Part shown: positions 16,437 through 60,200 of the stretch, in pieces | Layout of the letters: every line of letters starts with the position of its first letter | Numbering within the stretch: the stretch's first letter is position 1 | From: Protoeuglena noctilucae | Lineage: Eukaryota | Direction: 5' to 3' | DNA: 64,000 bases | Assembly: GCA_958009085.1 (NCBI GenBank) | Contig: OY253668.1 | Coordinates: 1,674,001-1,738,000, forward strand | Translations under genes and position numbers: made by a program | Notes under the pieces: generated by a model | The model's database searches: none | The model's input: only the letters and a program-made list of their open reading frames with translations | What the model was told of the DNA's origin: nothing

Positions 16437-19400
16437 ATGGACACTGGCCTCGACCTGAGGGGCTGTTTCGCCAGAGTGCGAGCCATACAATGGCGCCAAA
16501 ATGTCCTTCTTGCGCACGAGGTGATGCCGGGGACCTCGTGGGGCGCGGGGCACTGCTTCGGGCTGTGCCCGTGGCCAAATGCGGCCCAATGCGGCCCCAA
16601 CGACGCCCACGATCATCCACACGGGCTACTGTGATGGCTTTGAGTGCACTGGGATGTCCCTGCCCGGGACTCACGCAGCGCCCGCTGCACCTACCCTACC
16701 CTTCCTCCCACCCTGCAGGCACAAGAACTCCTGTCTGCCGTGATGGGCTGCGCCGACGTTTTCCTGCGGGCAAGTGGTAGTACCAATGATAGTACCAATC
16801 TAAACGACGCTGTGTCCGAATTCTACGAGTGTAGGGGCCTGGAGACGCTCACGCCAGTCCTGGGCATCAGCGCTGCGCAGAGGGCGGTCCGGTCGCAGCT
16901 CGCGGCGGGGGACCGCACGGAGGACGGCGCTGTCCTCGGCTTGCTTGACCGTGTGGGGCAGGAGATATGTGCTGTGCTCGCCCACGTGCTCCGCAACGCC
17001 TCGCACTGCGCCTCCTTCCATGACCTCGGTGGCCTGCCGCACCTGGTCGACTACCTCAAGCGCACCGTGCACGCCGACGTCAGCAAGTCGACCGCCGGTG
17101 GGTCCCCGCGCCGGGCGGCCGACGCGCTGAGGGCGGTGCTGGCCGGCGGGAAGGACGTGCGGGCGATGGTGCTGGAGCTGGGTGCGATGGAGCCCTTGGT
17201 GCAGCTGACGGTGTCGGGCAACTTCAAGGTCGCCGCCGCGTCCCTCATGGCGCTGACGGTCGTCTTGTCGGGGATGGACGACCGCTCGCGCTCCCTCGCG
17301 ATCCAAGCCAGGGCAGGCGAGTGGGACCGGGGGGGACGGCGACAGGGGCCGCACCATGGCCGTGCTCACCCCCGGCTGCGCTCCCCTGCGTGCAGTCCCC
17401 AACCTTCTGACCCTGCTGCACTCTGCCAAGCCCAGTCTCCGTCTCGATGCCCTCCAGTGCTTCCACTACCTGCTAAGAGGCGGCAGGGAGGAGCGCAGGG
17501 CAGTGTTGGCGCACATATCCCCCGCAGCTCTCGTCCAGGTGAGAAGACGCGAGGGCGCGGGATCTCCGCGAACCCCATCGTGATGGAATGGCTCTTGCAA
17601 TTCTCGGCCCTGCCGAGCTGCCGCGCCCGCTGCCCTGCCGCTGCCCTGCAAAGGCCGCTCGCCCCGTCGTCTGCCCGTGCAGGCCACCGTCCCTCTCCTG
17701 CTGGCCGCGCAGCCCTCATGGGCCTCTCGCCTGGCGGCGTCCGTGCTGGGCCAGCTGTCGAGCGAGCCCGAGCTGTCCCGGAAGATCGCCATGCGCGGCG
17801 CCGTGCCCCTGCTGTCCAACATGCTCACCCATCAGGTCGCCATGACCCGCCGGACCGCCGCCTTCTGCCTGGGTCGGCTCGTTGCGGACCCGGACGTCAA
17901 GGGCGCGGTCGTGACGCTGGGCGCCCTGCCCCGCCTCATCAACATGCTCGACGGCGACAACAACCTCCACGCGCCGGCGTTCGTGCTGAGTCAGCTCCCC
18001 GCGAGCCCGGACCTGGCCCTGGCCGTCTCCAGGGTGGGCGTGCTCGAGCGGATGTGGGAGCTGCGGCAGGAGGGCGGGGCATCCAGGGACGCGGGGTCGT
18101 GCATCGCGCGGTGCATCGCCAGCACGGGGGCGCAGCTGTCGTCGCCGGTGAGGCAATACGCGGCGGGACCCCGCCCGACCTCCGCGCTGGCTGACGGCAT
18201 TCAAAGACACTCGCGCTTTCAACCGCCCTTGTGCAGGACGGCGTCGCGCTGGCGATGCGCTTCCTGGCCGAGAAAGTGGGGCAGCTCCGGGAAGCCGCGG
18301 CGGCGCTGGCGGCCGCCCCCGACACGCGCCCGACTGCGTTGTCCCAGGTGGCCTCGGAGACGTGGCGCGCGGAGCGGGGGTTGGCGGGCGCGCTCCTCGT
18401 CTTCACGCCGTGGGAGGGCCTGTGCCGGCAGCTGGCGTCGGGGACGAGCCTGGCGTGGGAGGTGAAAGGGCGGTCGCTACCATGCCGCGTGCCCTCGCAC
18501 TGCTGCCCGCCGTTTGCGATCCGCGCCGCCCATGCCCTACTCCTCTGCAGGCCGTGGCTGCCACCCTGCCCCTCCTGTCCCAGGCCAGCAAGCGCATGTC
18601 CTTGGGCGCATGCTTCCCAGCCGCGTCTATGCTCCATCGGCTCATCCATGTCCGCGACAAGGAGCCCTGGCCCGTGCATGACAGCCCCTGGTTCGAGCCG
18701 TCCCACGCCGGGGCGAGCGCGGTGCCCAGGCCCAGCGCCGCCCCCGCCAATGCTCCCGCCAGTGCCCCCGCCAGTGCTCCCGACAGCGCCCACGCCACCA
18801 CGCAGACAGGTGTCGAGGCCCCTTCCGAGATGACGCTGGTGATGACCGTCCCAGAGGCCTTGGCGGCTGCCGTGGACATGGTCCGGGCCCGGACGGCGAG
18901 CGAAGCGCGAGTGCTCACCGTGGAGGCGGGCGGCGCGGGCCGGGAGGGCCCGGGGGACGGCGCGAGGCCCCGGGAGGCGAGGGACTCTCCGGAGGTGGAG
19001 CGGCCACGGAAACGGGCGAGGGTCGCGGGCGCAGAGGACCAGGAGGGCGCGGGCGCGAGCCCCCGCCCGGCGCCTGGCGGGGGCGATGCGAGCGGGGGCG
19101 CGGCGGCGGTCGCGGGGTCGTCATCGCCGGACGGCGGGGCGGAGGCGCGGGGGGAGTCGGAAGGGGGCGCGGGGGAGCCGTGCGTGGACGTGTGGGTGAG
19201 CGGAACGCGCCACAGGGTGCCGCGGGAGGCGCTCGTGGGGCACTCGAGCTTCTTCCGAGCCCTGCTCGAGGGGCCGTTTGCGGAGGGCGCCGGGAACGAG
19301 GTGCGGCTGGGCGAGGGCAGCCCGGGGGACATCGCGCGGGCTCTGGCGATGCTGGGCGAGATCCACGCCGCTGGCAGGGAGGGGCGGGCGGTGGGGGACG

Positions 19401-20563
19401 CGGCGGGCGGGGTGGCGGATTGGGGCGAGATGGTCAGCTGCCTCGTCCTGGCGGACCAGTGGGACGTGGGCGGGCTCAAGGAGGTCATGGAGAGGCGACT
19501 GGCGCGATCACTGGGTGAGACGGCCCCTCGGCGCGGCAGAGTGTTGCGTTGCGGGGGTGCTGCGGGGATGTTGCGGGGGTGCTGCGGGGCCGTTGCAGAG
19601 CGCTCCGGGGGTGCCATCCGCTTCCTGCGTCGCTCCCCGCAGACACGGGCAATGTCCTGCAGACCGCGGCGGTCGCCGAGGCCCTGCGCTGCCCCGTCCT
19701 GGCCCTGGCGGTGCTTCGGTTCTCGCTGTGGAACTACGGCGCTGTCGCCGCGGCGTTCTCGGAGCAGTGCAGCCCGCGCCCGGGGTCCAATGGCAAGTCG
19801 GACGCCTCGCCGGCCACTTTGCACACGAGCGTCGATGCGGGAGAGGGCGCGGGCGGATGTCTGGGCGACGGCGCGGCTGCGGACGGGCCAGCGCAAGCAC
19901 TGCCTTCTGCGGAGGGTGGCGTGGCTGCGGATGGCGCGCCGTCGGGGTCGGAGGGGGCCCAAGAGTTGGACCGCCTGCTGCCGCGCATGGCGGCGGTGGC
20001 AGAGAGCGAGATACGGAGGCTGGCGCAGGACGCATTGGTGCGTGGCGGGCATTGGCGGGGAGGCTCTGTCGCGTCCTGGTGGGCCCTGTCAGCCTTCCGT
20101 AGTTAGTCACGAAACGAGCCTGGTGTGCCCCATCACTCCCCCGCAGGACGCGCTGGCGGAGGAGGCGCTGCGATTCCAGGCGACGGCGGGGGACAGCCAG
20201 AGGGCGCAGGGACTGATGAGCGAGGTGTCCGAGGCGATGGCGAGACTGTTCGAAAGTGCGGACTTGCGCGTCGACGGCGCGCCCGTCCAAGCCAACGAGC
20301 TCCGCGCGGTGCTTCAGGACGCGGTGACGCGAACCGTCATGCAGGCGCTGCTGCCGCGCCAGTTGCAGGGGGCGGAGCGCGGGGGGCAGGCGTTGGGCGG
20401 GGAGTCGAACGTGGTGCGTTGGCGCATGGTCTGGTCGTCCAGGGGCGTGGTGCAGACATGGCAGGGGGCGGACGGCCAAGTGGAGCCAAGCCGCGACGGT
20501 TCTGCATCCGAGGGAGAGTCGCCCGAGGGCACTCCCATGTTCGGGCAGGGAGAAGGGTCTTGA
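16437..20563 (+). CDS. Armadillo-repeat plus BTB/POZ domain protein (ARIA/ABAP1-like architecture)
   Basis: ARM-like repeats (LGGLPHLV, LGAMEPLVQL, RGAVPLL, LGALPRLI) and a BTB motif (VDVWVSG...LVGHSSFFRALLEGPFAE...LVLADQW). Exon boundaries are approximate. Confidence 0.75.
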
Positions 20564-21188
20564 GTCGTGTCACGACGATCGCCCCTTGTTGCCTGCCCGC
20601 GCATTCAGGGTGGGGCGGAGGGCTGGCACTGTGTTGAAGTGCGATTGGAAGGGCTTAGTGCAGCGAGTGAGGATTTTGTGCCAGAATCGCTCCAGTCCTC
20701 ATTGGGCCGCTTCCCGACACGATTCTTTACTTGTTCTCGGCATCTGCTGGACGACCAGTTCACCGCAGGCCCTCTAGGTGTAACCGCGTTTCGCTGGGAA
20801 GCTCGTCCCCTTGTGGCTCCTGCCTCTCCGTCCCGGCCCGGTGGGGGTCACCGAGTGTACATTACGCATGTGTGCGTACGGCGCACCGGGTGTCGTGGTG
20901 AGAGGGCTGCGCGCGCGGATTGGGGCCTCGCGTGTCGAGATGCATCCGCATGCGTCGCACTAGCGCGTTGCGGGGCGTCGGGCGGTCCCCAGCTTGTGCA
21001 TACGGGGACGATATGCACACAGCGCGCGTGTCGTGTCGCGCGATGCGGGCGACGGGCGCGGGGGGCCCCGGGCGGGTAGAGCGGGGCAGAGCACGGTAGC
21101 GGGGGACGGCCGCGCGACGTGGCGGGGGGCGTTGCCGGTGCGGAAGATGGAGAAGCGCCACGCGTTGTGTCCGCAGACGCCACCGGCC

Positions 21189-22588
21189 ATGCCATATCGA
21201 GTCTCGCTCATCTTCCTGGTCGCCGTGCTGGCAGGCAAGCGGGGGCGGGGGAAAGAAGGCGCGATTGACGCGCGTGGGGGCATGCGATGCGCGGGCGGCG
21301 TAGCTGATGGCTGGCGTATCGTTTTGCAAGCAGGTCTGGGCGCACAGGCGGTGCAGGCGAAGGTGCACCAGCAGCCTGATGTCGTCCAGAAGGCGTCCAA
21401 GCCTGGGAACGCGTCTGAGCTGTGGGACGACTCGGCTGCAAACAACTTCATCGGCGTCGCAGTCAGCGAGCGTGTGAATACCCTGGCGGCCTCTGGAGAC
21501 GAGCGCCTGCTCGCCATGTCGACCGTTACATTCCTCCCGCACCCCGGGGGTACAGCTAAGAGTGATGCGTGGTTTCTGGTGACGCCGGATGAAGGCGTGG
21601 CCTTTGGTCTGGCGGACGCGGGAGGGGGGACGTCGGATGCGTACGCCAAGGAGCTCATGCAGCAGTCGGAGGTCTTGTCTAGCAAGCACATGTGCTGGGA
21701 GAGCATGTCGACGCAAGAGCTGCTGAGGGAAGCCCATGCCCAGACCAAGACCAAGGGCAGCTCGACGGCGACCATGGGCATGATTTGCGGGAACCGGCTC
21801 CAGATCGCTGCGCTGGGGGACGCGGGGGTTGTGGTGGTGCGGGACGGAAAGGTGGTCCTCGTCACCGCCTCGCAACAGCACGGGTTCCAGCAGCCTCTTC
21901 AGGTGAGTAGTTGCGTAGAATTTGCCGTCTGCCCCAGTCGGACCCACAGATTGATGCATGCATGTGAATTCCGTTGCAAAAAGCGAGGCACACTTTGATA
22001 ATCCTGACATAACCAGGGGCTGACTCTCTTTGGTTGCAGCTTGGAAAGCCCGACAATGGTGTCGATGCAGACGATGCGCTCTTCTACGACTTGACCGTCC
22101 AGCGAGGGGATCTCGTGGTGGCGGCCACAGACGGCCTTTGGGACAACATGTTCGAGCACGAGGTGTTGGCTTTCGTGGCAGAGGCTCAGAAGAGCAGGAA
22201 AGGCCCCCGTGCTCTGGCGAAGATGCTAGCCGTACTGGCGCAGCGGCGCGGGGCGGATGGGTCGGTCACGACGCCCGTGGCAGTGGATGCCAAGGCGGCG
22301 GGCCGGGAGTGGAAGGGCGGGAGGCGGGATGACATCACAGTTATGGCCATATACGTGGTTGGTGGGCAAGATGTGCGGGATGGGGTTTACGTGGACTACT
22401 GCGATGCCCAGAGGAACATATGCGGTTCGATGGGGACGTGCGTGCGATTGTCGACTGGTTACAGCTGCCAGTGCACAGAGGGGTACGGGGTGAAGACCGT
22501 GGGCGGCCAACAGACGTGCGTGGACATTGACGAGTGCGCAGACGGGCAGCACTGTGTCGGGGGGTGGTGTGAGAACACCATCGGGAGA
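21189..22588 (+). CDS. PTC7-like PP2C phosphatase with N-terminal signal peptide and C-terminal EGF-like repeats; truncated by the gap
   Basis: MPYRVSLIFLVAVLAG|LGAQAVQA signal peptide; SDAWF, LADAGGG, GSSTA, LGDAG, QQHGF, ATDGLWDN and GGRRDDIT PP2C motifs; followed by CDAQRNICGSMGTC...YSCQC..GY...CVDIDEC EGF/cbEGF repeats. Confidence 0.82.
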
Positions 22589-22788
22589 NNNNNNNNNNNN
22601 NNNNNNNNNNNNNNNNNNNNNNNNNNNNNNNNNNNNNNNNNNNNNNNNNNNNNNNNNNNNNNNNNNNNNNNNNNNNNNNNNNNNNNNNNNNNNNNNNNNN
22701 NNNNNNNNNNNNNNNNNNNNNNNNNNNNNNNNNNNNNNNNNNNNNNNNNNNNNNNNNNNNNNNNNNNNNNNNNNNNNNNNNNNNNNNN
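22589..22788. other. Assembly gap (200 N)
   Basis: A run of N. It truncates the 3' ends of both convergent flanking genes. Confidence 0.99.
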
Positions 22789-25184
22789 CGAAGGACGCGG
22801 GGAGGCAGTAGCCGTGGTCGATCGGGACGAGCTCGATCTCCCCCGACGCTGTGCGCCGACGCAGGATGTTGCCGCCGTTGCGGTCGGCGTTGGCCAGGCG
22901 CAGGTCCAACACGGCAATCTTGTGCACCTGCGGGGAGCGCCGTCGGGGGCTACAGAGTGAGGCCGGGGCACGAGGAGGCGTGATGATGGGACATGTCGCA
23001 CTGCAAGCACGCGGGCCGCGCATCGCATCGTCGCGGTGCTCCCCACCTCGTGCACGGGGATATTGGAGTACCCGTACTCCTCGCAGTCGCCCTCAGACGT
23101 CACGAACTCCTGCAAGGACCCCCGCTTGACCTCCTGCTGCACGCCCGAGGGGTCGTGCTTGCAGTACGACACAAGGGCCGTGGCGGGCACCCCCGCGAAG
23201 CCCCCGTGGTCCAGCAGGTACGCGGCCACCTCGCGGACCGCGCCCTCGCCGGGGATCGTCCCGCGGCGGAGGTCGGAGCTGCCCGTGCCGGGGGCCGTGC
23301 TGCCAGACCGCTGTGGCGACCCCTTGGGGTTGTTGGGGGCCGCGGGCTCCTCGTCCTGCAATGGGGAGACGAGCACAAAAGGGGTGAGATTTGAAATAAC
23401 TGATTGAAAGAGCTGGGATGCTGGACTGCCCTGTGCAGTGTGGGAAAGGGTCGGTGTGAGGCACATGCGGCGAGCCCCGGCTGGTCCAATGCAGAGGTCA
23501 AGGCGCGGCTGTCGCCCACCCGCAGCCCCCGTCGTCACCTCGGGTTTGAAGACGGCGACGCGGTCGCCATTGGCGCCCCGGAGGAAGTAGGACCCGCCCG
23601 TGCCGACGGCGGCGAGCTCGGGGTCGTAGCCCACGCTGAGGCCGAGCTGGGCGTCGAGGAACTTGCGGTTGAGGGCGTGGTTGGGGCAGGAGAGGGGAGG
23701 GGTGCCGACGGGCGCGCACTGCTGGTCGCCCACCGGCACGAGAAAGTCAGACAGGGCCGGGCCGGGGCGCTGCGAGGTGCGGCTCTGCCGGCGGTGCGCG
23801 GTGTAATCGTAGAGGGAGGCAGGGGCGACGTCGGAGCCGCTGGTAGGGGTGGCGGCGCCAGACCCCACCGGGGAGACGCGGGAGGGGAGGGAGGCGGCGT
23901 GGGGAGGGCCGGCGGGGGCGGCTGCCCCACGCGACCCACCCTGGGCCTTGCCGGAGGCGACCGTCAGCTTGCGCCGCACGGACTCGGCCGTGTCGTGGTG
24001 CGTCACGGAAAGCTCTGCGGCGGGGGCGGGGACGGGTGAGTAACCAGCTACGCAAGGCGCCGGTGGGTCGCGCGTCTGTCCCGCCACACAGTGCGCCCAG
24101 TGGTGCTCGTCGCGCGAGCGTGTTGCTGTCCTGCTCACCTAAGCTCGAGCTCTTCGTGGCTTGCATGGACATGGCCGAGGCCCGGGGCCACATGAGGTGG
24201 AGGAAGGTGTTGGGGAGGAGGGACATGTCGTCCCCGCGGGCGAGGGCGGTCGGGCGGGGAGGTGGCGTGCCGTTGCCGTTCACGATGGCGAGGCTGCTCG
24301 ACGACGGCACGGGACGGATGGCGTCGTCCGCCTCCCACCCGTCCTCCGTCGTGCCGTCAGCCGCCGTGACGACCTCCAGCTCCACCGCCCTACGCAGGCC
24401 TGCGCGATCGGAGCAGCGCGGGCGGTTGTGGTAGTTGGCGCAGCGAGGGCGCAGGACCGGCCGGAGTGCGCGGAGGTCGCACGTAAACACACAGGCACGT
24501 GAAGCGGGAAGGGCGCTCACCTCCGGAGGGCGCGCGGGGGTTCGGGAGAGCTGCGGCGGGGGCGTCGATGGGGAAGCCCAGGCCCGGTGGCATCTCGAGG
24601 GCGGGCTGGGCCCGTGAATCGCCGAAGAACACGGTCTGCTTGTCAGTGACGATGTGCCCGCCGATGATGTCCTGCGGCCGCACCAGGAGGTGCAGGTGCG
24701 CCTTGTCGTGCTTGGCCGCCCGGGCCACCTGGCCGACTATCTCGTTGTCGTGGAGCTCCCGGCCGCCGCAGACGAGGACGTGGCGGTCGTTAAACCATCC
24801 CTTGTTGCTGTGCAGCTTGAGCTTGATGTCCCGAATGGTCTGGTCCGCGAAGGCCTGGATGGTCTCGATCGTCTGCAGGCATGCGTAGCACGGCAACGTC
24901 ACGGCCGCGCTCCCCGCCCCGGCGACGCGGCACGGACGTCGACGATGCAAAAATAAAGGAGAGGAGAGGGAGCGGGGGGCGGGGCGCGCGCGGCGTCGCA
25001 CCTCTTCGTTGCCGTCGTTTCGCCTGTAGAGGAACCGGAGCGCGATTTCCTCGTGGGCCATCAGCGGGGGGACCTGCTGGCTGGCGTTCGCGAGGGCTGA
25101 TGAGAGGCCGCCCGCGGCCGGGGAGCCCCCCCGCGGGGGCACGGGGGGCGTCATGCCAGGGGGCTCCGTCATGGCTGTGGCCAT
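22789..25184 (-). CDS. Type II phosphatidylinositol 4-kinase gamma with N-terminal ubiquitin-like domain; 3'-truncated
   Basis: UBL segment ([10 protein letters not shown]...LVCGGREL), [58 protein letters not shown] and PIDHGYCLP motifs. Confidence 0.93.
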
Positions 25185-44415: not shown

Positions 44416-45133
44416 TCACTCCTGGGTCCTCTCGAGGAGGGTCTTGGAGTCGAGGGCGAGCCCCATGGTGTTGAGGCCGTTATCCACGTACATGATGTGG
44501 CCCGTGACGGCAGAGGCCAGCGGAGAGCACAGGAACGCAGCCACCGCGCCCACCTGGGGGGATGAGGGAATGGGAGAGGTTGGGATTGGATAGGGTCATG
44601 AACGGGGACTTGGAAGGGGCAGGGGTTGGCACTCAGAGGTGACCGGCAGTATGAAATAAAGAGGTGAGGGGCAGCGCTAGCACTACCCATGGGCAGTCTT
44701 CGACAAGCTCAGTCACTCAGCAAATTCCAACAAGTTCCCCGCACTCGCCTCGTCGGCCGCGAGCTCCTTCTGCACGGGCGCGTTGGCGTAGGAGTAGCGG
44801 ATCATGTCGTCGATGAAGCCGATGGCGCGGGCGGCGCGGGAGCCCAGGGGGCCGGCGCTGATCGTGTTCACGCGGACCTTGTACTGTGAGAAAGGGGTCA
44901 GAGAGAGGGCAGCGTCAGGGGCGCATCTCAGAGACGCGGGGGGTGTCGCCATGGCCCTTGTCAGGGCCACAGAGTGACTGTGGTGCAGGTGGCACTCGCA
45001 CTAGGGGGTTTCGGAACAAGCAACGCCGGCGTGCGGGTATCGCACAAGCCCAAGTCACGCAGCCACGTGTCGTCCCCCCCCGCTCGCCTTGCGCCCTGCC
45101 TCGTACGCCAGAACGCGCGTGTCAGACTCGAGG

Positions 45134-45173
<40 letters not shown>

Positions 45174-46869
45174 TGACCCTCTCCGACGCGAGGTAGGTGA
45201 GCGACACGGCAGCCCCGCCCTCGTTCATCAGGGGCCCGAAGCGCTGCAGCATCGAGATGAAGGAGTAGGACGACGCCGACAGGGCAGCCAGGTAGCCTTG
45301 GCGGGACGTCTCGAGCAGCGGCTTCTTGACCTGCGGCACAAGGATGGTGGAGGTGGCGCAAGGGCAGGTGGGGGCGCCAGTCACAACGACAGTCATTGCG
45401 ACGGTGGCGGACGGTGACGGCCGTCCAGCGAGCGTGTTGGGTCGCGCATCCGTACACCCCCGCACCTCGGGCCCGTTGGCGAGGGAGTGGACGAGGATGT
45501 CGATCTTGCCAAAGTCCTTGGCCACCTTCTCAGCCGTTTCCGACACGGTGTAGGACCCCGCCGCCTCGTACCGCTTGTTCTCCTTCACGTCCGCGGGGAC
45601 GTCCTCGGGGAGGTCGAACACAGCATCTGCACGTGGCGATACACGCTCGTCTCATCGCAAGAGCCCTGGCCCCTCCGCAGCGTGCATTGCGAAGGGGCCG
45701 GTGGCAAGGGTTGCCGTGCGCGTTTACTAAGATAGGACGCCATTGGCCGCGCGTCCCTCACCCATGGGGTAGATCTTGACGAATTCCATCATGCCGCCGT
45801 TCGACAGCTTGCGGGACTCGTCGAACTTGCCGCGGTTGAGCGACGTCTCAAAGATGTTCAGCGCGGGCACCCACACGCCCAGGATCACCTCCGCGCCCGC
45901 CTCCGCCATGGCCTGCGAATCGCAGAGTCGAGTCCGGGTGACGCCGAAGCCCCGGCCGCCCGATGGTCCGCGGAGGTTGGGGCAGATTTGCACGGCGCGC
46001 ACAGGCCGCGCCCACGCGTGGTGGCCCGCGGTGCACGGCCGGCTCGGGGCCTGCCCGGAGTCCGTGCGCGGTCACCTTAGCGATGGCCCAGCCGAAGCCC
46101 TGGTCGTCGGCCACGCCGGCGATGAAGGCCCTCTTGCCCTTGAGGTCGATGTTGAGGCCCGCCGCGCAGCTCACGGACCGAGAGCTGGCACGGGAGGCGC
46201 GCTGGGCGCGCAGCCCCGCGCCGGAAGCCCTGCTCGCCCGTGCGGACGCGAAGGAGGCCGTCGCTGCGGGGGTCGCGGAGGGGAACGTCTCAGGACACTC
46301 CGGCCTCGCAGCCGCGTCGGCGAGGGGGCAGGGCGCGGCCAGGTCGCGCTGGGTGATAGAACACACGCCACGCGTCCTGCCGTGAACGCGGATTGGCGCC
46401 TATATCTCGCATCGACGCGCGGGGTCGCGGGAATTTATCCGGCCCCACAAGGCACCGCCCCGCCGCCAGGAGGGGACGCACGGCCTCTGGATGCGGCAGC
46501 AGCGTCGATGCGGGCGAATCAAATCCATCGCGGCCAACGGATCCCCACCCCCGATTCGCTGCTGCCGGGGACCCCGGCAGGCCTCCCTTGGGGGCGGGAG
46601 GGTGAGCGACAGGTGCGATGGCGCAGCGGGCGGGTCTAAAACGAGCCATATGAGCCAACGGATGCCATGGAAGCAGCACCGCTTGCGCTTCCCCCGCCCC
46701 TTGCCGCACGCAAGGGCCGAGGAAGGCAGCAAGGAGCGCGTGGGCCGAACCACGGATCCCCAAGTCACTCACCGGGCATCGCATGGTGAAGGCAGGCCGC
46801 CCCGGCCTTGCGGGCCGGGGAGCGGACCGACTGGGCCGCGAGGGCAGCGGAGGTCGCGAGTGCCGCCAT
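44416..46869 (-). CDS. ENR: Plastid enoyl-ACP reductase (ENR/FabI)
   Basis: [64 protein letters not shown] and YVDNGLN motifs. Exon 1 ([13 protein letters not shown]...) joins the next exon in phase 1. Confidence 0.95.
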
Positions 46870-57257: not shown

Positions 57258-60200
57258 ATGGCGCCGCCCATCGGCATTGACCTGGGCACCACGTACAGCT
57301 GCGTGGGTATCTGGAAGAATGACAGGTGAGCGTGCGACTGCAAGCGAGTCCTCGCGAGTCCAGAGCAGGTTATCGCTCAGCGCGCACCAGCACCCCCTCT
57401 CGCGCGCTCTCCGCCCACGTTCGCTCCCCGCCCACGTTCGCAGGGTGGAAATCATTGCGAGTGAGACGGGTAACCGGACCGTCCCGAGCTATGTCGCGTT
57501 CACGGACACCGAGCGGCTGATCGGCGATGGTGAGCTTCTAGACCCTCGTCCGCCGTATCGACAGCATCGGCTGCCTTCGCATGTGGATGACTCTGTTTGT
57601 TACGACATCTGTTTTCTCGGCCGCGTTGCTGCGCCCGGGATTGCGGCGGCCATCTTGCGCGATGGCCGGAGTGCAGCCTGCTCCGCCCCACTCCCGCGCT
57701 CCCGCTGACCGATCCCGCCCTACCGTTGCCTCGCAGCTGCGAAAAATCAGGTGGCAATGAACCCCGAGAACACCGTGTTCGACGCCAAGCGCCTCATCGG
57801 CCGCAAGTTCAGCGACCCGAGCGTCCAGAGCGACATGAAGCACTGGCCCTTCCAAGTGGTCCCCGGCGACGCGGGCAAGCCGAGCGTGCGCGTCCGGTTC
57901 AAGGGCCAGACCAAGACGTTCTCGCCGGAGGAGATCTCCGCGATGGTGCTGACCAAGGTGAGCTTATGTGCTACGGCATGGCGTTCGTGCTGCTGCAGCC
58001 CCAGCGTGCTTGCCCATCATGCCTGCCCATCACAGCACGTTCGGCACGGTTTGGCCCCCAACAACATCCCATGTTGCCGGCTCTTCTGGCCCGCTCTGGA
58101 GAACACAGACAAACACAGAACGGGCAAGCACGGAACGCAAGGTCTCTCTTCGCGCTCTTGCAGATGAAGGAGATCGCGGAGTCGTACCTGGGAGAGCGCG
58201 TGAAGGACGCGGTGGTGACGGTCCCCGCCTACTTCAACGACTCGCAGCGGCAGGCGACCAAGGACGCGGGGGCCATCGCGGGGCTGACCGTGCTGCGGAT
58301 CATCAACGAGCCCACGGCCGCTGCCATCGCGTACGGTTTGGACAAGAAGGCCGAGCGGCGCGGCGAGCGCAACGTGCTCATCTTCGATTTGGGCGGCGGC
58401 ACGTTCGACGTCTCGCTCCTGGCAATCGAGGAGGGCATCTTCGAGGTCAAGGCGACGGCGGGCGACACGTATTTGGGCGGTGAGGACTTTGACAACCGAA
58501 TGGTGGCGCACTTCGTCGAGGAGTTCAAGCGCAAGCACAAGCGGGACCTGTCCGGCAACGCCCGCGCCCTCCGCCGGCTGCGCACGGCCTGCGAGCGTGC
58601 CAAGCGCACGCTGTCGTCCTCGACCCAGGCCAGCATCGAGATCGACTCGCTGTTCGACGGCATCGACTTCTTCACCAGCCTCTCACGCGCACGCTTCGAG
58701 GTGAGTGCAGCGGGTGGGGCTTTGATCCACCTGCGCCCTCGCCTGTCGGTACAGCACAGCACAGCGCAGCACACCACGATTGTCATCAACGTGCTCTTCC
58801 CATCTACTCCCACCCCGCAGGAGCTGAACATGGACCTGTTCCGCAAGTGCATGGACCCCGTGGACAAGGTCCTGCGGGACGCCAAGATGGACAAGAGCAA
58901 GATCCACGATGTCGTGCTGGTAGGCGGGTCGACGCGGATCCCGAAAGTGCAGCAGCTGTTGCAGGATTATTTCAACGGCAAGGAGCTGTGCAAGAGCATC
59001 AACCCCGACGAGGCCGTGGCGTACGGGGCGGCGGTGCAGGCGGCGATCCTTGGGGGCGAGACGAGTTCGAAGGTACAGGACCTCCTGCTGCTGGATGTGA
59101 CGCCGCTGTCGCTGGGCCTGGAGACGGCCGGCGGGGTCATGACGGTGCTCATCCCGCGCAACACGACGGTGCCGACCAAGAAGGAGCAGGTCTTCTCGAC
59201 TTTCTCTGACAACCAGGCGAGTGGGTGATCTGGGGGTGATGGGGGTGGTGGTGCGGGTGGTGATGGGGGTGATGATGGGGGTGTGATGGGGGTTATGGTG
59301 GGAGCGATGATGGGGGTGGTCATGCAGTGCTGTACACCAAGAGAGCGATGCGTGCATGGCGTGAGTACGCATCGTGCTGCGTGGGTGTTGGTGCCTTCGT
59401 GCCGCACCGGCGCACCTGCAACACTATCTAAGCTCTCTCCCCAACCCGCAGACGGCCGTTACGATTCAGGTCTTCGAGGGCGAGCGCTCCATGACGAGGG
59501 ACAACCACCCGCTGGGGAAGTTCGACTTGACGGGCATCCCGCCCGCGCCCCGCGGCGTGCCCCAGATCTCCGTCACGTTCGACATTGACGCGAACGGCAT
59601 CCTGAACGTGTCTGCGGAGGATAAGACGACCGGGCGGCACTCGAAGATCACGATCACCAACGACAAGGGGCGCTTGAGCAAGGACGACATTGAGCGCATG
59701 GTGCAGGTGCGGGGTGGGTGGCTGAGGGTGCATGGTAGTGGCATGGCAGGGACTGTGACTGTGGCTGCTGGCAGTATTGGAAAGGCACCACGATGCAGTG
59801 GACTATGTGATGGGTCAGTCCAACTGACCTACAGCAGCACGCGTGACTGTTGATATTGACGCCTGTCGCCTTTGTGCTCGTTTGTCACGCAGGAGGCGGA
59901 GAGGTACAGGGCGGAGGACGAGAGCCACAAGGAGAAGATCGAGGCGAAGAACACGCTCGAGAACTACGCCTACTCGATGCGCAACACGGTGCGGGACGAC
60001 AAGGTGCAGATGTCAGCGGTGAGTGGCAGAGTGGCTGATGTGCGATGACAGGGTGTGAGATGACAAAGTGCAGATCGCACAGGTGAGTGGCTGAGCGGGG
60101 AGGGAGCGGGGTGCGGGGTGAGACGTGGGGTCAAGGGTGAGGTGCTGGGCAGGATGGGGGCTGAAGGGTGGGAGGTGGAGTGAGTGCTTGGCAGGGTGGG

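Follow-up and report, generated by a model that had tools for sequence, protein, structure and literature searches.

The window analysed here is a stretch of 64,000 nucleotides (nt) from contig OY253668.1 of Protoeuglena noctilucae, read with the standard genetic code. Its plus strand carries a gene that joins a PP2C-type protein phosphatase to two epidermal growth factor (EGF) modules, the second of them calcium-binding (cbEGF), behind an N-terminus that resembles a secretion signal; judged from these features, the product is probably a lumenal or extracellular Ser/Thr phosphatase. The gene, copy A, has a paralogue, copy B, with which it forms a convergent (tail-to-tail) pair; copy B is represented at full length by P0280, a protein of 470 amino acids found on 4 contigs from JGI and Logan, to which all residue numbers below refer. 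Positions 21189-21902 and 22040-22588 of the window are both open, the spliced exons give 401 open codons up to an assembly gap, and the G+C content of the gene region (62-72%) is that of the remainder of the window and eukaryotic in look.

The structure of the gene comes from sequencing runs as well as from the letters of the window. Of the 24 runs listed by a run search, 12, from 3 studies, contain the stretch (marine metagenomes, four metatranscriptome runs, and runs with one organism label), and runs X1, X3, X9 and X10 were compared with positions 20900-24200; all four are contig sets, so depth is a rough guide. X9 and X10, both metatranscriptome runs from the same study, contain RNA contigs of 1709 nt (X9) and 1728 nt (X10) that cover 21176-21230, 21330-21899 and 22037-22358 and then run on. 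These spliced contigs define three introns, whose splice-site letters were checked, and they carry the signal-peptide-like, PP2C and EGF parts of copy B as one molecule: copy B is transcribed and spliced, and its gene structure and complete open reading frames (ORFs) can be read directly. There is no splice joint between the PP2C and EGF parts, as the preliminary description of the locus had supposed: the RNA is unbroken through 22037-22358 and onward in copy B, and for copy A a contig from the RNA library of X9 (record 12; 380 nt, depth 5.9) matches 22345-22587 exactly and continues for 137 nt beyond. Transcripts that end or splice before the EGF region, which that description had named as evidence against the fusion, do not appear among the RNA contigs (Table 1).

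Table 1. Features of the phosphatase gene and the adjoining gene, in window positions
Feature	Positions	Strand	Basis
End of 5' leader exon, with first in-frame ATG (20868)	20868..20897	+	Loose ends of RNA contigs before 21176 match here; upstream extent in copy A putative
Intron 1, 279 nt, GT..AG	20898..21176	+	X9 and X10 contigs resume at 21176/21177
Exon with ATG 21189 and first 15 codons of signal-peptide-like segment	21177..21234	+	RNA pieces 21176-21230; open, matches P0280
Intron 2, 99 nt, GC..AG, in frame	21235..21333	+	99-nt skip in both RNA runs
Exon: putative signal peptide end (to ~21359), disordered linker with one N-x-S sequon, N-terminal two thirds of PP2C (from ~21531)	21334..21902	+	Pfam, 6ae9 alignment, AlphaFold2 pLDDT
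Intron 3, 137 nt, GT..AG, phase 0	21903..22039	+	137-nt skip in both RNA runs
PP2C C-terminal third (TDGLWDN and RRDDITV motifs)	22040..22357	+	Pfam, alignments
EGF module 1, six Cys	22400..22519	+	Pfam EGF and EGF_CA
cbEGF module 2 start (VDIDEC...C...C.N), cut by gap; continues SYKCTCKPGQLPFKNKCQNPDECSPWCNW then stop	22520..22587	+	P0154, P0277; X9 record 12
Gap, exactly 200 N	22589..22788	.	Letters
Convergent PI3_PI4_kinase gene (type II-like), outside the finding	22789..24200	-	Pfam E 8.7e-11; three spliced introns in RNA contigs

The 5' part of the gene is more intricate than had been described. The hydrophobic start at 21189 is present as reported, but the 99-nt GC-AG intron (intron 2) and a possible earlier ATG at 20868 had been overlooked. 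The intron 2 joint carries 5 ambiguous letters, and the placement adopted gives the ends GCAAGC..AAGCAG. Left unspliced, it would put a basic, Gly-rich stretch of 33 residues in the middle of the signal peptide; this stretch (KRGRGKEG...) is absent from P0280 and present in the unspliced ORFs P0004 and P0284. With the intron removed, the N-terminus reads MPYRVSLIFLVAVLAG and then LGAQAVQAKV. The ATG at 20868 is the sole ATG in 20723-20897, downstream of an in-frame stop at 20781, and would add 14 residues; it has a pyrimidine at -3, and the ATG at 21189 has a G there. The protein starts with MCAYGAPGVVTPPAMPYR... if the first is used (as in P0280) or with MPYR... if the second is. Within intron 3, an additional C follows 21931 in public DNA contigs, and P0004 and P0284 consequently end otherwise than the ORF of the window. 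Long opposite-strand ORFs (20865-22265 and 20963-21898), which match 0 Pfam families, were set aside as GC-rich noise; an upstream ORF at 18152-20560 likewise matches 0 Pfam families. An apparent joint of 21237 to 23940 in X1 was rejected as chance, being made of 22-letter matches with 11,655 letters between them.

The catalytic part was assigned by profile, sequence and structure comparison. Against Pfam (gathering cut-offs: PP2C 20.3, PP2C_2 24, SpoIIE 25 and EGF_CA 27 bits), the translation of 21189-21902 matches PP2C (E 3.5e-4, 20.7 bits), and that of 22040-22588 matches EGF_CA (E 6.9e-8, 33 bits) and the C-terminal end of PP2C (E 2.3e-3), with a weak SpoIIE match. P0280 as a whole matches PP2C (1.7e-8, 34.9 bits) and PP2C_2 (9.7e-6, 25.7 bits), both above cut-off, and SpoIIE at 18.8 bits, under it. 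The best solved phmmer match is the rice photosystem II core phosphatase PBCP (PDB 6ae9; E 1.2e-26, residues 96-325). Matches of this strength are far outside what chance would give. An AlphaFold2 model of P0280, built with an alignment of 82 sequences, has a mean predicted local distance difference test score (pLDDT) of 79: below 50 at residues 1-75, above 90 over about 90-330, about 80 in the two EGFs, and with two helices at 422-457 that belong to copy B only. Foldseek places 6ae9 at rank 1 for this model (E 1.3e-19, target TM-score 0.83), and ranks 2-50, as listed, are all PP2C-type phosphatases. The model thus assigns the fold with confidence to the PP2C7 (PTC7/PBCP) class of PPM phosphatases, in agreement with the PTC7-type domain first recognised, and structure prediction, which had been suggested as a check, returned a confident PP2C fold.

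Relatives were collected by an exhaustive HMMER search with the exon piece of 238 amino acids. At E <= 0.001 it returned 447 proteins, of which a single one, an unspliced ORF of the organism itself, was as strong as E <= 1e-30; the strongest of the others has 43% identity (E 1.3e-19). The nearest 149 non-self relatives were examined, and 79 of them entered the 82-sequence alignment beside P0280 and the ORF fragments P0281 (copy B) and P0277 (copy A); sampling favoured higher-ranking relatives, and short fragments and the longest multidomain proteins were left out. The resulting family consensus is LPHP.K...GGEDA.FI...GVADGVGGWA...GSSTAC...LGDSGF...QQH.FNFP.QLG...TDGLFDN...GGK.DDITV. The metal ligands of PP2C7 are described in the main text of a study of the class as the Asp of motifs 1, 2, 5, 8 (two) and 11 (PMC4524716). 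All six align with the family columns and are kept (D107, D124, D192, D250, D254 and D317), with the same residues in the window copy. The family-typical GGEDA and ADGVGGW read AKSDA and ADAGGGT here; these residues are typical of the class rather than defining. The kept Asp residues and the altered motifs (EDA to SDA, DGVGG to DAGGG) had both been seen at the outset, and both hold against the 82-sequence consensus. The domain is predicted to hydrolyse phospho-Ser/Thr in a Mn2+/Mg2+-dependent manner.

The Cys-rich part consists of two EGF modules, which a Cys-pattern expression finds in both P0154 and P0155. P0280 has 12 Cys in the two patterns at canonical spacing, 2 more at its very end and 2 in the PP2C domain, and matches EGF_CA above cut-off (E 2.6e-11, 44 bits). 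The Ca-binding EGF consensus is D-x-D/N-E-C ... N ... Y/F. Module 2 has it in both copies (DIDEC...CENTIGSYKC in A, DVDEC...CRNTVGSYTC in B), and module 1, which does not, is a plain EGF; the claim of one complete EGF followed by a cbEGF cut off at the gap (22589-22788) is borne out. Among the phmmer matches of the EGF part are LTBP-1 (2.2e-17), fibrillin (2.2e-12) and, more weakly, vacuolar-sorting receptor 1 (6e-4). Both copies close on a C-x(3-7)-C motif (...CSPWCNW in A, ...QQAYCK in B), and the tail of copy B is lengthened by an insert of two helices, about 36 residues in all, that is absent from copy A. Residues 420-462, the insert after the cbEGF, align weakly to the post-cbEGF segment of LTBP-1 and lack the LTBP-1 cysteines. 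The EGF part has a G+C content at third codon positions (GC3) of 0.79, against 0.74-0.80 for the PP2C parts, a uniformity which indicates that the fusion is native to the genome.

At the gap, public contigs have T at base 22588 where the window has A. With T, the cbEGF of copy A continues canonically (...CENTIGSYKCTC...). A near-length protein search with the exon-4 translation gave two proteins, whose clusters have 4 and 5 members. P0154 and P0277 are ORFs of genomic contigs in ENA with 99-100% identity to the window; each runs on through ...CENTIGSYKCTCKPGQLPFKNKCQNPDECSPWCNW to its end, and the letters of record 12 past 22587 encode the same SYKCTCKPGQ continuation; given this agreement, the window base at 22588 is an edge artefact. 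The stop codon of copy A lies 28 codons past the gap start, with the last 88 nt of coding sequence inside the gap, and the protein has 416 amino acids from ATG 21189 or 430 from ATG 20868. Copy B has 456-470, its stop lying 84 codons past the equivalent of window position 22544. Between the gap start and these stops there is no transmembrane, glycosylphosphatidylinositol or kinase segment, and the suggestion of a receptor-like protein falls away.

Copy B (proteins P0155, P0281-P0283 and full-length P0280) follows the window closely and then leaves it. Its RNA contigs depart after 22265: there are 12 differences in 22266-22358, then 143 letters where the window has 146, then a 40-letter match to 22505-22544 with 4 differences, and beyond the equivalent of 22544 a different sequence that still encodes a cbEGF. 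The coding differences in the shared stretch 20866-22265 number 2, at 21715 and 22148. P0280 differs from the window translation at 2 of the first 294 residues (Q157R and M256V) and at 69 of the next 107: the copies are nearly identical over their first 1.4 kb and about 30% divergent in protein from the last PP2C strand onward. A contig with the shared part begins at 20866, which sets the identical arms at about 20866 to 22265, and for the sharp drop in identity at 22265 the best interpretation is the boundary of a gene-conversion tract. That the two forms are alleles was considered and rejected, since both occur on one contig of 1.27 Mb and on one hairpin contig: an ENA contig of 1,271,004 nt bears both 3' forms (P0279 and P0282) and two 5' ORFs (P0004 and P0286) that differ at residue 157, and hairpin contigs of 1196 nt in X1 and X3 lead from window 22236-22587, in forward sense, over 538 nt to the variant form in reverse. 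The 538 nt less the coding tails of 88 and 254 nt leave a spacer of about 196 nt between the two stop codons. Depth in X3 is 18.7 over the shared part, 10.4 over the hairpin contig and 9.56 over the right flank.

The gap itself would then hide a good deal. An RNA contig of the neighbouring kinase gene (X9 record 13) has 903 nt more than the window shows, placed in the gap; RNA of this minus-strand gene skips three introns (between 22924 and 23044, 23354 and 23538, and 24014 and 24139). We infer that the 200 N stand for several kilobases, holding the end of copy A, the spacer, the whole of inverted copy B and at least 903 nt of kinase mRNA, and one arm of a palindrome appears to have been lost from the assembly. 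This content is known from protein ORFs and contig tables rather than as DNA: in JGI metagenome contigs, a protein-pattern scan for the gap DNA gave 591 pattern matches with no relative among them, and an exact 47-base pattern gave 0 matches.

Hydropathy and the residues around it bear on where the protein goes. In P0280 the sole 19-residue span with a Kyte-Doolittle mean above 1.6 is N-terminal, within residues 13-40 (a stretch at about 18-36), and the scan shows no other hydrophobic stretch, C-terminus included. The hydrophobic core, VSLIFLVAVLAGLGA, is followed by AQA/VQA, in keeping with the signal-peptide-like N-terminus of the first account, then, on direct reading of the letters, by several D and E residues with no aromatic where cleavage is likely. 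The acidic residues and the missing aromatic make the N-terminus unlike a transit peptide or a bipartite plastid signal, whatever the lineage; an organellar transit peptide, which had been named as the outcome that would speak against secretion, is unlikely for the same residues and for the core with its AXA. One N-x-S sequon lies at N55, in the disordered linker of about 50 residues. The segment is predicted to be a cleavable signal peptide, an uncleaved type II signal anchor being less likely; with either, the PP2C domain and the EGFs would lie on the lumenal or outer side. Secretion of this protein is likewise a prediction.

Two other genes were noted elsewhere in the window. An intron-split HSP70 of cytosolic type lies at 57591-59225 (+); JGI data contain a full-length protein 100% identical to it (P0185), and below that identity a search with its exon gave matches at 89% and 87%, followed by plant and animal sequences at 82-87%. 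An enoyl-ACP reductase gene of several exons lies at 44716-46399 (-; adh_short_C2, E 2e-23). An Ala/Arg/Ser-rich stretch ahead of its Rossmann motif is a putative plastid transit peptide, although the start codon was not found, and the gene and this stretch together hint at a plastid-bearing alga.

We hold with moderate confidence that the locus encodes an exported, metal-dependent Ser/Thr phosphatase with an EGF-cbEGF docking arm, in two copies that differ in the arm. The order of parts would be signal peptide, disordered linker of about 50 residues, PP2C, EGF, cbEGF and a short tail ending in a Cys pair. Entry into the endoplasmic reticulum (ER) would be co-translational, with the EGF disulfides forming in the ER; the soluble enzyme could then act in the lumen of the secretory pathway or outside the cell, dephosphorylating phospho-Ser/Thr of secreted or surface proteins. 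The Ca2+-stiffened EGF pair would serve as a docking arm that gives the enzyme a partner or a place, and a shared catalytic body with diverged EGF arms suggests that the two copies have two different partners. Both substrates and docking role are proposals from sequence.

Certain observations pull the other way. First, the hydrophobic core is only about 15 residues long and has 18 residues before it if ATG 20868 is the start, which would allow an uncleaved anchor. Second, the transcription of copy A is putative: the sole matching contig from an RNA library crosses no splice site and could be DNA carry-over. The splicing of copy A is deduced from that of copy B, whose coding sequence departs from it at 2 positions along the 1.4 kb that they share. 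Third, the X1 depths (46 shared, 16 hairpin, 64 flank) are off the simple 2:1:1 ratio. Finally, beside the metal site, E106S, G125A and V126G are changed and the Trp after DGVGG (motif 2) is lost, columns E106, G125 and V126 being at least 90% conserved in the 82 sequences; activity could be reduced or altered.

These last changes, with the modest Pfam scores for PP2C models, are also what would suit a secreted protein whose PP2C part is a pseudo-phosphatase or a module for binding phospho-proteins, an adhesion or recognition molecule rather than an enzyme. Pseudo-enzymes usually lose metal-ligand residues, whereas both paralogues keep the six Asp; G125 presumably makes its contact through the backbone, as in PP2C-alpha, and Ala may be tolerated there. 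The near identity of the catalytic body between the copies speaks in the same direction, and we think a pseudo-enzyme unlikely.

An exported and active enzyme need not be a regulator. In seawater, which is rich in Mg2+ and Ca2+, it could instead scavenge phosphorus by dephosphorylating phospho-proteins and phospho-peptides, dissolved or on surfaces: millimolar Mg2+/Mn2+ is required by PP2C enzymes and Ca2+ by a cbEGF, the protein is soluble and has no anchor, and the organism is marine, with the gene present in ocean metatranscriptomes. Nothing ties its expression to phosphorus stress, the algal scavenging enzymes known to us belong to other families, and divergence of the EGF arm between the copies is easier to reconcile with specific partners than with bulk hydrolysis; scavenging seems improbable on this balance.

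It is also conceivable that the N-terminus is no secretion signal, and that the protein is organellar or cytosolic like other PP2C7 enzymes, its Cys-rich part without disulfides. The closest solved structure is a chloroplast enzyme, PBCP, and for most PP2C7 proteins the predicted location is the mitochondrion, plastid or cytosol, with only one predicted signal peptide in the non-photosynthetic set, according to the main text of the PP2C7 study (PMC4524716). The N-terminus, for its part, has a short hydrophobic core and then AXA, not an Ala/Ser/Arg-rich amphipathic presequence, and at most 18 residues ahead of the core are too few for a stromal transit peptide before a lumenal signal. Canonical EGF/cbEGF modules with 12 Cys and a Ca-binding consensus are, to our knowledge, confined to oxidising compartments, which makes this location very improbable. 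That PP2C and EGF are not one protein at all, through chimeric assembly or read-through of two genes, is hardly credible: the locus does lie at an assembly gap and inside an inverted repeat of the kind that tangles assembly graphs, yet the junction falls within one exon, is identical in the window, ENA ORFs (P0154, P0277, P0281, P0283), a JGI contig (P0155) and the spliced RNA of two runs, and codon GC3 is uniform across the parts.

The exported phosphatase with its docking arm admits a broader interpretation, which we regard as possible but rather doubtful. In a free-living eukaryote, the protein might be dedicated to erasing protein phosphorylation outside the cell or in the secretory pathway; it would be a PPM Ser/Thr phosphatase held in place by a Ca2+-dependent EGF arm, its catalytic body homogenised by gene conversion while the arms diverge towards different surface partners, with seawater Mg2+ and Ca2+ loading enzyme and arm. 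Kinases are known to act in the secretory pathway and outside cells; apart from those of apicomplexan parasites, hardly any protein Ser/Thr phosphatases dedicated to that side are known to us.

Searches for the same architecture elsewhere were negative within their scope. The EGF-type Cys pattern occurs in 0 of the 149 nearest non-self relatives, and a Pfam EGF family in 0 of the 13 relatives chosen for hydrophobic N-termini or long C-terminal extensions; the tail after motif 11 has a median of 14 residues in the 112 relatives with that motif and 150 in this protein. A crude N-terminal hydrophobicity test is passed by 8 of the 149, of which, by eye, 3 are signal-peptide-like (P0014, P0028 and P0087), two anchor-like, one a false match inside the domain and two uncertain. 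An Atlas search with P0280 gave best clusters at 0.84, where scores under 0.9 are leads only, and these are PP2C families (one listed row without a common Pfam family), none with EGF. A search for longer fused forms with the exon-4 piece gave only 3 metazoan EGF proteins. In the literature searched, partly judged on titles and abstract openings, no description of a PP2C+EGF architecture was found, and 'EGF' occurs 0 times in the main text of the PP2C7 paper (PMC4524716). The combination was rightly called unfamiliar. What is already known is the PP2C7 fold and chemistry, secreted PP2Cs and the common shuffling of EGF modules; what was not found elsewhere is the combination, together with a palindromic gene pair with one half homogenised and the other diverging.

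An abundant marine phototroph here expresses a natural PP2C whose build resembles that of an extracellular matrix protein and which would place a normally intracellular enzyme outside the cytoplasm. As a small soluble protein (416-470 amino acids) it offers a test case for whether PPM enzymes can work in oxidising, Ca-rich compartments, for PPM substrates at the algal cell surface, and for a duplicated gene in which one half is kept identical and the other diverges. It also shows what a 200-N gap of an assembly can hide, here a palindromic gene pair.

Among known systems the closest is the PP2C7 class itself (yeast Ptc7, human PPTC7, plant PBCP and 6ae9), which has the catalytic fold and the metal-binding Asp set in common with this protein. 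Known members are mitochondrial, plastidial or cytosolic and have a short tail, whereas here the N-terminus is signal-peptide-like and the EGF-cbEGF tail has 150 residues; this protein also deviates at E106, G125, V126 and the Trp after motif 2, and is at best 43% identical to a non-self relative. Signal-peptide-like N-termini ahead of PP2C7 are also found in P0014, P0028 and P0087, at 30-35% identity over the matched stretches and none with EGF. In P0087 the N-terminus is followed by a plant-type LTP_2 domain (Cys-rich, extracellular-type) and then by PP2C7; it may represent a further secretory fusion of PP2C7, or else a gene model that merges two genes. To take PP2Cs as intracellular or organellar was too strong a premise, as these three relatives and secreted enzymes of Toxoplasma gondii indicate. 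In the sections of PMC7793252 that concern them, PPM3C has a signal peptide and reaches the vacuole lumen, and it is one of several signal-bearing PP2Cs, including PP2C-hn (PMC7793252). These enzymes likewise combine a signal peptide with a PP2C catalytic domain and act outside the producer's cytoplasm; they are aligned with human PPM1A, a canonical PP2C, have N-terminal extensions and no EGF, and work at the parasite-host interface. The protein described here, by comparison, is of the PP2C7 class, has a C-terminal EGF pair and comes from a free-living marine phototroph. On the EGF side, fibrillin-1, LTBP-1 and the plant vacuolar sorting receptors have the same six-Cys spacing and Ca-binding consensus; relative to fibrillin-1 and LTBP-1, there are only two modules here, joined to an enzyme and without TB, hybrid or transmembrane parts. 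The animal receptor-type protein phosphatases also unite a phosphatase with adhesion-type modules in one polypeptide. In those proteins a cytoplasmic tyrosine phosphatase lies behind a transmembrane helix that separates it from extracellular modules, whereas here there is no such helix, and a Ser/Thr phosphatase would sit on the same side as the EGFs, lumenal or outer.

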